Virus record (IMG/VR): IMGVR_UViG_2695420540_000009
Strand: one strand, 5' to 3'
DNA length: 14,990 bases
From: a virus
Taxonomy: Duplodnaviria > Heunggongvirae > Uroviricota > Caudoviricetes
Positions 4,119 to 5,027 of this stretch are shown in pieces. Under the pieces are notes generated by a model that was not told the DNA's origin, made no database searches, and saw nothing but the letters and a program-made list of their open reading frames with translations. Position numbers and translations under genes: made by a program. Positions within the stretch are counted from its first letter, which is position 1. Every line of letters starts with the position of its first letter.

Positions 4119-5027
4119 CTCGGCACAAGCGGGGAGAAAATACCGTTACTCAGTACAGCGAATACCTGGACTAATCGACAAACATTCAGCGGTGGCCTTT
4201 CTGGTGAACTATCCGGCAATGCTTCTACAGCTGCAAAATTAAAAACTGCCAGGAAAATAAGCAATGTGGCTTTTGATGGTTCCTCCGATATCACATTAAA
4301 AGCAAGTCATGTTGGTGCGTTTGCCTTAGGGAAAACAGGAAGCACCGTTGCGAATGATAAAGCAGTTGGATGGAACTGGAGTAGCGGAGCCTATAACGCA
4401 ACTATTAGTGGTGCATCAACGTTAATTATTCATTTTTATATGGGAGAAGGAAGTTGTCCTGCAGCTCAGTTTCGGATTAATTATAAAAATGGCGGTATTT
4501 TTTATCGTTCAGCCCGTGATGGTTATGGTTTTGAAGCCGACTGGTCCGAATTTTACACCACCAGAAAACCTTCAGCAGGAGATGTTGGTGCACTGCCGTT
4601 ATCTGGTGGTCAACTGAATGGTGCACTGGGTATCGGAACATCCAGTGCTCTTGGCGGTAATTCGATTGTATTGGGTGATAATGACACGGGCTTTAAACAA
4701 AAAGGCGATGGTAATCTGGATGTTTATGCTAATAACGTCCATGTTATGCGCTTTGTCTCCGGAAGCATTCAAAGTAATAAAACCATAAATATTACGGGAC
4801 GTGTTAATCCCTCGGATTACGGTAACTTTGATTCCCGCTATGTGAGAGATGTCAGACTTGGCACACGAGTTGTTTAGACCATGAAGAAAGGCGTGATGTA
4901 TGAAAAATCAGGCCATGTAATCACGGGGCTTGGTATTATCGGTGAAGTCGATGGTGATGATCCGGCAGTATTCAGACCAATACAAAAGTTAATTAACGGA
5001 ACATGGTATAACGTATCGCAGGTATAA
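4101..5027 (+). CDS. stf: promoterless alternative tail-fibre C-terminal (variable) cassette, open from the crossover site; interrupted by an in-frame TAG at 4875..4877
   Basis: Frame is open from the TAA inside the crossover site (4098..4100) to TAA at 5025..5027, apart from TAG at 4875..4877. It starts NLGLREL..., parallel to YLGLQE in the expressed fibre at the other site, shares the [12 protein letters not shown](K/R)Q.GDG motif, and its last 18 residues ([17 protein letters not shown]) parallel the expressed fibre C-terminus ([17 protein letters not shown]). The ORF track reports only 4266..4877. Confidence 0.7.

Follow-up and report, generated by a model that had tools for sequence, protein, structure and literature searches.

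Our analysis reveals a genuine nonsense mutation in the silent half of a tail-fiber inversion switch. We are highly confident in a joint reading of the window, that is, of the whole 14,990-nt stretch of DNA that was analyzed: it contains an inversion switch in which a real, lineage-wide change from CAG to TAG lies in silent cassette A, leaving a fiber of 875 rather than 925 aa, with probable loss of function and neutral decay. The stretch is a tail-fiber switch of the Mu G-segment and e14 P-segment type in a lambdoid prophage of the Shigella sonnei type, and its parts are as follows.

3856..4062, minus strand: remnant of a pin-type serine invertase, Resolvase N-terminal domain only.
4093..4118, no strand assigned: crossover site L, TTATCTAAAACC-TC-GGTTTACGAGAA, 26 bp, core at 4105-4106.
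4107..5027, plus strand: cassette A, an alternative C-terminal ending for the side tail fiber (P2 gpH / Mu S' type), silent here.
4875..4877, plus strand: amber codon TAG, from CAG (Gln) by a C-to-T transition at 4875.
4878..5027, plus strand: the part of cassette A orphaned by the TAG, with 49 sense codons and TAA, the C-terminal fiber module.
5030..5563, plus strand: tfaA, the tail fiber assembly gene of cassette A, 177 aa, Caudo_TAP.
5592..6119, minus strand: tfaB, the tail fiber assembly gene of cassette B, Caudo_TAP, 175 aa as called in related genomes.
6121..7020, minus strand: cassette B, variable C-terminal part of the fiber, expressed in the window's orientation.
7009..7034, no strand assigned: crossover site R, the inverted partner, with reverse complement TTATCGAATACC-TC-GGTTTACAGGAA, core at 7021-7022.
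7035..8571, minus strand: constant part of the fiber, outside the invertible segment, reliable only up to the N10 scaffold joint at 8572-8581.

Sites L and R, both of the form 12-TC-12 and 83% complementary over 30 nt, flank the segment in inverted orientation, and the gix sites of Mu have the same 12-2-12 form. Each cassette is followed by its own tfa gene, cassette A and tfaA on the plus strand and cassette B and tfaB on the minus strand, while the constant part lies outside, from 7035. The product of tfaA matches PF02413 (E 4.8e-34), and its gene starts 2 nt after the fiber stop (TAA-TC-ATG, with the ATG at 5030) rather than 3 nt, as had been counted in the preliminary description. For tfaB, an alternative ORF call extends to a TTG at 6155. 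The frame of cassette A had been given as 4101..5027; it does run from 4101, but functionally the cassette begins at the crossover core, 4105/4106.

The amber codon is an isolated interruption of this frame. It lies on the plus strand in frame with 4101, with 774 nt (258 codons) upstream of it, and, as had been claimed, it is the sole internal stop in the 308 codons from 4101 to 5027, which it divides into ORFs of 203 aa (4266..4877) and 48 aa (4881..5027). Against this single stop, the 927-nt cassette averaged 19.6 stops when its mononucleotides were shuffled, with one or fewer in none of 20,000 trials, and the other five frames of the cassette hold 12 to 31. The frame is closed by the TAA at 5025-5027 after 49 further sense codons, a run that was stop-free in 3.9% of the shuffles. 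When the C-terminal residues encoded there were compared with the end of the expressed cassette, the two proved to resemble each other, which agrees with the earlier claim that some 50 codons past the TAG (49 sense codons plus TAA) stay in frame and end like the expressed fiber. That claim had been made by reference to a 1213-aa "expressed fiber" ORF (6121..9762), and the comparison is sound for the C-terminal part of this ORF. The ORF crosses the N10 joint and contains one 11-residue stretch twice, and it is a chimera that upstream of 8571 belongs to the fiber gene of another prophage; in complete genomes the real gene is 918 aa.

The same allele is present throughout the lineage. An exact look-up of the tfaA protein, a criterion that is blind to the TAG, returned 10 chromosomal loci in 10 NCBI assemblies among the matches listed, and all 10 carry the TAG. 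A look-up of the 48-aa ORF added 10 further loci among the matches listed, for a total of 20 loci in 18 assemblies, many of them complete chromosomes and including HE616528 and CP026802; the TAG is found in 20/20. The entire 927-nt cassette equals that of the window in each of these loci, save for base 4101, within the crossover site, in three loci where the segment is inverted. The sequence index lists the 48-aa ORF under 2,201 blocks and tfaA under 4,765. We take HE616528 to be S. sonnei 53G. From that identity and from the published identity of CP026802, the 18 assemblies are taken to be Shigella sonnei. CP026802 is S. sonnei ATCC 29930 (PMC9430107).

The TAG is a true mutation common to the lineage and not private to one isolate. 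A sequencing or assembly error, with C as the true base at 4875, had been judged the less likely reading from the start. It would be conceivable, since the window is a scaffold of low quality, broken by N joints and with prophage repeats wrongly joined. We regard it as practically out of the question, because the TAG recurs in all 20 related loci (18 independent assemblies), in a cassette that is otherwise identical over its full length but for base 4101 in the inverted loci. Furthermore, positions 3852-8571 are 99.9% identical to complete genomes that carry the TAG. This interval is a single contig with the whole switch inside it. The mutation had also been called recent. This holds relative to the Escherichia coli copies described below, from which the lineage had split before it arose, but all S. 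sonnei-type loci examined have the TAG, and it is not confined to one strain.

Orthologous cassettes set the direction of the change. In all six complete E. coli genomes with this fiber ending, which are 98.4-98.6% identical to the window over the cassette, the codon is CAG. For the three closest orthologues (NCTC86, B-2207, and OZ040035), an alignment showed CAG in each, with C where the window has T. The count was extended to six carriers with a 55-mer centered on base 4875, such that any 28-nt seed must include that base: among 5,426 complete E. coli genomes, this search found the C allele in 6 and the TAG allele in none (0/5,426). The cassette is in the expressed position, fused to the fiber gene, in the three E. 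coli loci whose annotation was read. OZ040035 is the only one of these three in which it belongs to an uninterrupted fiber CDS (2,805 nt), the fiber genes of NCTC86 and B-2207 being broken upstream of the cassette. Likewise, gpH of phage L-413C has Gln at the amber position, followed by 49 residues of which 45 are identical to those of the window. Since the orthologues carry CAG or Gln and read through, with none ending at 4875, the cassette has no natural terminus at this point, and the ancestral codon was CAG. The comparison with orthologous cassettes that the preliminary description had proposed thus bears out its reading of a nonsense mutation.

The alternative is that the TAG is a natural terminus, with the 48-codon ORF either a separate gene or, after a restart at the ATG at 4881, the second of two pieces that reassemble. 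This ATG lies 3 nt past the TAG, and the 48-aa ORF has been called in many genomes. All orthologues with the module read through as Gln, however, and the Mu fiber is a continuous chain over this point. In addition, the sequence upstream of 4881, ACGAGTTGTTTAGACCATG, offers no clear Shine-Dalgarno for a restart, and the 48-aa ORF has no Pfam match on record. We consider a natural terminus highly improbable.

A change from CAG to TAG is also exactly what a glutamine-inserting amber suppressor of the supE type restores, and it could be argued that such a tRNA reads the codon as Gln and keeps the cassette working. This explanation strikes us as equally implausible. Where programmed readthrough or suppression would predict a conserved stop, the orthologues have CAG or Gln; tRNA genes were not found in the 14,990-nt window, signs of a suppressor are lacking in the lineage, and the surrounding prophage is defective.

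Other differences between the cassettes are few. Between the S. sonnei-type cassette and that of NCTC86, we counted 8 substitutions and one 3-nt deletion, too few to demonstrate relaxed selection statistically. At 4556-4564, cassette A has one Thr codon fewer (FYTTRKP) than the E. coli copies and L-413C gpH (FYTTTRKP), an in-frame 3-nt deletion in an ACC repeat that is common to the S. sonnei-type loci. We also considered deamination at a Dcm hotspot (CCWGG) as the origin of the transition, but the ancestral context, GTTGTTCAGACC, is not a Dcm site.

The part of the fiber beyond the TAG is homologous to the end of the Mu fiber. In a search of PDB sequences, cassette residues 231-306 aligned with residues 424-502 of 504 in Mu fiber S (5yvq; E 5e-16). 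The alignment runs across the TAG and includes the stretch SGHVITG. The cassette also matches the Mu S-S' chimera 8ju3 (E 9e-55). Homology of the lost 50 residues is taken from the PDB match to Mu S and not from Pfam, where they had no match above the cut-off and Phage_fiber_C reached only E 0.018. The 5yvq entry is the complex of the Mu fiber with Tfa, which binds the distal part of the fiber and drives trimerization (PMC9608196).

A further comparison indicates that this ending behaves as a unit. Most E. coli homologues, some 480 records, follow cassette A at about 98.5% only as far as 4861-4867 and then continue into another ending and another tfa. Because the ending and tfa switch together in these homologues, it appears that the last ~50 codons of the fiber, which encode its tip, form a single exchangeable module with tfa. 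The mosaic boundary at 4861-4867 is 8-14 nt upstream of the TAG, and a conserved VRD(V/I)RLG motif stands at the junction.

The TAG falls immediately after RLGTRVV, and with it the final fiber module is lost. Once inversion has brought cassette A under expression, its translation would end 50 residues early, at 875 aa instead of 925 aa, and gene calls in loci with the segment in that state list an 875-aa fiber followed by the 48-aa ORF. Given that the lost module is homologous to the end of the Mu fiber and co-varies with Tfa, we expect the 875-aa product to be nonfunctional, neither folded nor used; this expectation is drawn from homology. The premature stop may also abolish the stop-start coupling at TAATCATG, which would deprive tfaA of arriving ribosomes.

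The invertase beside the switch is dead, and its death preceded the amber mutation. The pin remnant spans 60-68 codons, matches the Resolvase N-terminal domain (PF00239; E 4.6e-15), and stops where intact invertases continue. In complete loci the invertase frame reads ...LQKGDALVV(stop)KLD(stop)LGHCMRHL..., with at least two in-frame stops (L016, about 2760-3182), at positions that are presumably Trp and Arg in intact invertases. An intact serine invertase gene was not found beside the crossover site; pin is a pseudogene. A short invertase, annotated as a 60-aa or partial recombinase, is already present in the E. coli relatives that carry CAG, and so the loss of the enzyme came before the TAG arose.

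Nevertheless, the segment is found in both orientations. Among loci that keep both crossover sites, six distinct ones (L005, L011, L016/L028, L018/L030, L021/L033, and L023) have the window's arrangement, and three (L013 = CP026802, L019 = UGZB01000001, and L020/L032 = CP044151) are inverted. In the inverted loci, cassette A, with its TAG, is oriented for expression, and the crossover sites are the reciprocal hybrids TTATCGAATACC-TC-GGTTTACGAGAA and TTATCTAAAACC-TC-GGTTTACAGGAA. The exchange maps precisely to the core of the sites, the pattern of conservative site-specific recombination. Since the TAG cassette occurs flipped between such hybrid sites, at least one inversion evidently postdates the amber mutation and occurred in a lineage that had already lost its own invertase. 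The independent events could number one or more, as a single strain might have been deposited as all three inverted records; a literature search for accessions CP044151 and UGZB01 gave no match.

In UGZB01000001 the locus occurs near both ends of the contig (L018, 11025-19171; L019, 4945576-4953722), with opposite orientations of the segment. One copy is 11 kb from the contig start and the other 10 kb from its end, their flanks are 100% identical at a constant offset of 4,933,332 nt, and the start of the contig is full of frameshifted trp genes. The ends are probably an untrimmed circular overlap that holds both states of one culture.

Presumably, an invertase encoded elsewhere in the genome acts in trans on the segment. 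Cross-action among Din-family invertases is given as established in the passage of PMC4272514 that cites Plasterk and van de Putte (1985) and Kutsukake et al. (2006). Segments of this family have a Fis-bound recombinational enhancer in cis, within the 5' part of the invertase gene. In the Hin system, the cis enhancer lies about 100 bp from the site (PMC3798978); by the Hin spacing, a place for a putative Fis-bound enhancer would be at about 3925-3990 and kept in the pin remnant.

These observations bear on the earlier description of the window as a locked switch. The cis invertase is indeed dead, but the window keeps both sites, and in the three inverted loci the TAG cassette is flipped. True locking comes with loss of the second site, by IS insertion or deletion, and that is not the state of the window. 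Strains with an IS element in cassette B and site R gone are physically locked, with the amber cassette silent. For strains like the window's, a switch that is still live, worked by a trans-acting serine invertase, is a possibility that we put at somewhat below even. Such a reading is hinted at by UGZB01000001, where both orientations between 100% identical flanks look like heterogeneity within a culture. If it is true, the amber mutation has turned a host-range switch between A and B into a switch between an intact and a truncated side tail fiber, that is, between on and off.

The prophage as a whole is visibly decaying, as the preliminary description had supposed, with the pin pseudogene, IS insertions, and a split J gene. 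In four of the loci that keep the whole tail region, J is divided into overlapping ORFs of 547 aa and 513 aa (53G, UGZB01, CP044151, and CP044191, or L028/L030/L032/L033; about 14816-17994 in L028). Because J is split, the prophage probably cannot produce working tails, regardless of its fiber. In most S. sonnei-type loci, an IS3-family element (HTH_Tnp_1 and rve) interrupts cassette B at about window position 6409. Site R is gone from the IS-interrupted loci L004, L006-L010, L012, L014, L015, L017, and L022; L023 has the IS and has kept site R. In most S. sonnei-type loci, the constant fiber part with site R was absent within up to 10 kb. The prophage adjoins trpEDCBA.

The prophage has many lesions besides the amber codon, which belongs to an ordinary course of prophage decay and pseudogenization, a process that we suppose to be neutral, free of selection. 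It is also conceivable that loss of fiber ending A was advantageous to the host or the prophage and was fixed by selection rather than drift, and the allele is indeed fixed in all loci examined. Yet any mutation that arises early in a clone as young as S. sonnei becomes universal, the same prophage has many other lesions of the neutral-decay type, and repeated independent changes at the gene were not seen. We judge fixation by selection to be unlikely by a wide margin, and we retain neutral decay as the probable course.

The element has clear counterparts among known systems. In the e14 P segment of E. coli K-12 (pinE, stfP/stfE, tfaP/tfaE), inversion swaps the C-terminal part of the side tail fiber together with tfa (PMC4272514). 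The layout is the same here: a lambdoid or defective prophage with a serine-invertase gene abutting the invertible segment. Unlike in e14, the invertase is a pseudogene, one cassette is amber, and the cassettes are of the P2 gpH / L-413C type. The Mu G segment (S/S', U/U', Gin) is the source of the structural matches given above, including that of the end spanning the TAG, but in our element the fiber is the side tail fiber of a lambdoid prophage, the cis invertase is dead, and the expressed ending is short by 50 residues. The fiber genes gpH/gpG of L-413C, a P2-like phage used in the diagnosis of Yersinia pestis, share 87.7% nucleotide identity with cassette A (query 90-939, window 4178-5027), and the last 50 residues are nearly identical; in contrast to cassette A, the L-413C fiber gene is single, non-invertible, and intact in a viable phage. 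In structure, the element is a degenerate member of the Din family (Gin/Cin/Pin/Hin), with the structural features of the e14 P and Mu G segments save an intact adjacent invertase, and it presumably depends on an enzyme supplied from elsewhere.

The event itself is an ordinary pseudogenizing point mutation in a Shigella prophage, and the sequence is present in thousands of public assemblies. A nonsense mutation beside an IS-interrupted cassette, a split J, and a dead invertase is in keeping with the IS expansion and pseudogene formation of Shigella prophages, of which the window is a typical example without notable difference. The TAG at 4875 has a use as a marker that separates the S. sonnei-type copy of the locus from the CAG copies of E. 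coli relatives. For annotators, the ORFs of 203 aa and 48 aa are two pieces of one fiber cassette. More generally, the occurrence of both orientations despite a dead neighboring invertase means that a segment without an adjacent invertase should not be equated with a locked one.

The window is a scaffold of short contigs. Its N positions (134-174, 3851, 8572-8581, 10282-10391, 10458, and 11555) mostly match the breaks in homology to complete genomes, which fall at 3851, 8572-8581, 10281/10282, and 11555; near 10458 the homology resumes earlier, at 10453. The region of the J C-terminus and the Lom N-terminus is present twice (10453-11554 and 11556-13255), and this duplication in the scaffold gives rise to artificial Lom-J and Lom-fiber fusion ORFs (10709..11869 and 10276..10641). 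The methyltransferase region at 913-1925 (ORF 1217-1885, plus strand) shares only 98.3% identity with its counterpart beside the switch in complete S. sonnei-type loci; as the switch itself reaches 99.9%, the window's methyltransferase copy probably stems from another prophage in that genome. A 252-aa ORF at 54-812 on the minus strand, beside the N run at 134-174, has the N-terminal domain of an IS110-family transposase (DEDD_Tnp_IS110). Finally, a 547-aa ORF at 2201-3844 on the plus strand combines a T3SS LRR N-terminus with a NEL E3-ligase domain (IpaH family). It adjoins the pin remnant across the single N at 3851, and since complete S. sonnei-type loci do not have this arrangement, the adjacency may be a scaffolding artifact. 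The IpaH-type LRR-NEL ORF marks the source as Shigella or EIEC, which fits Shigella.
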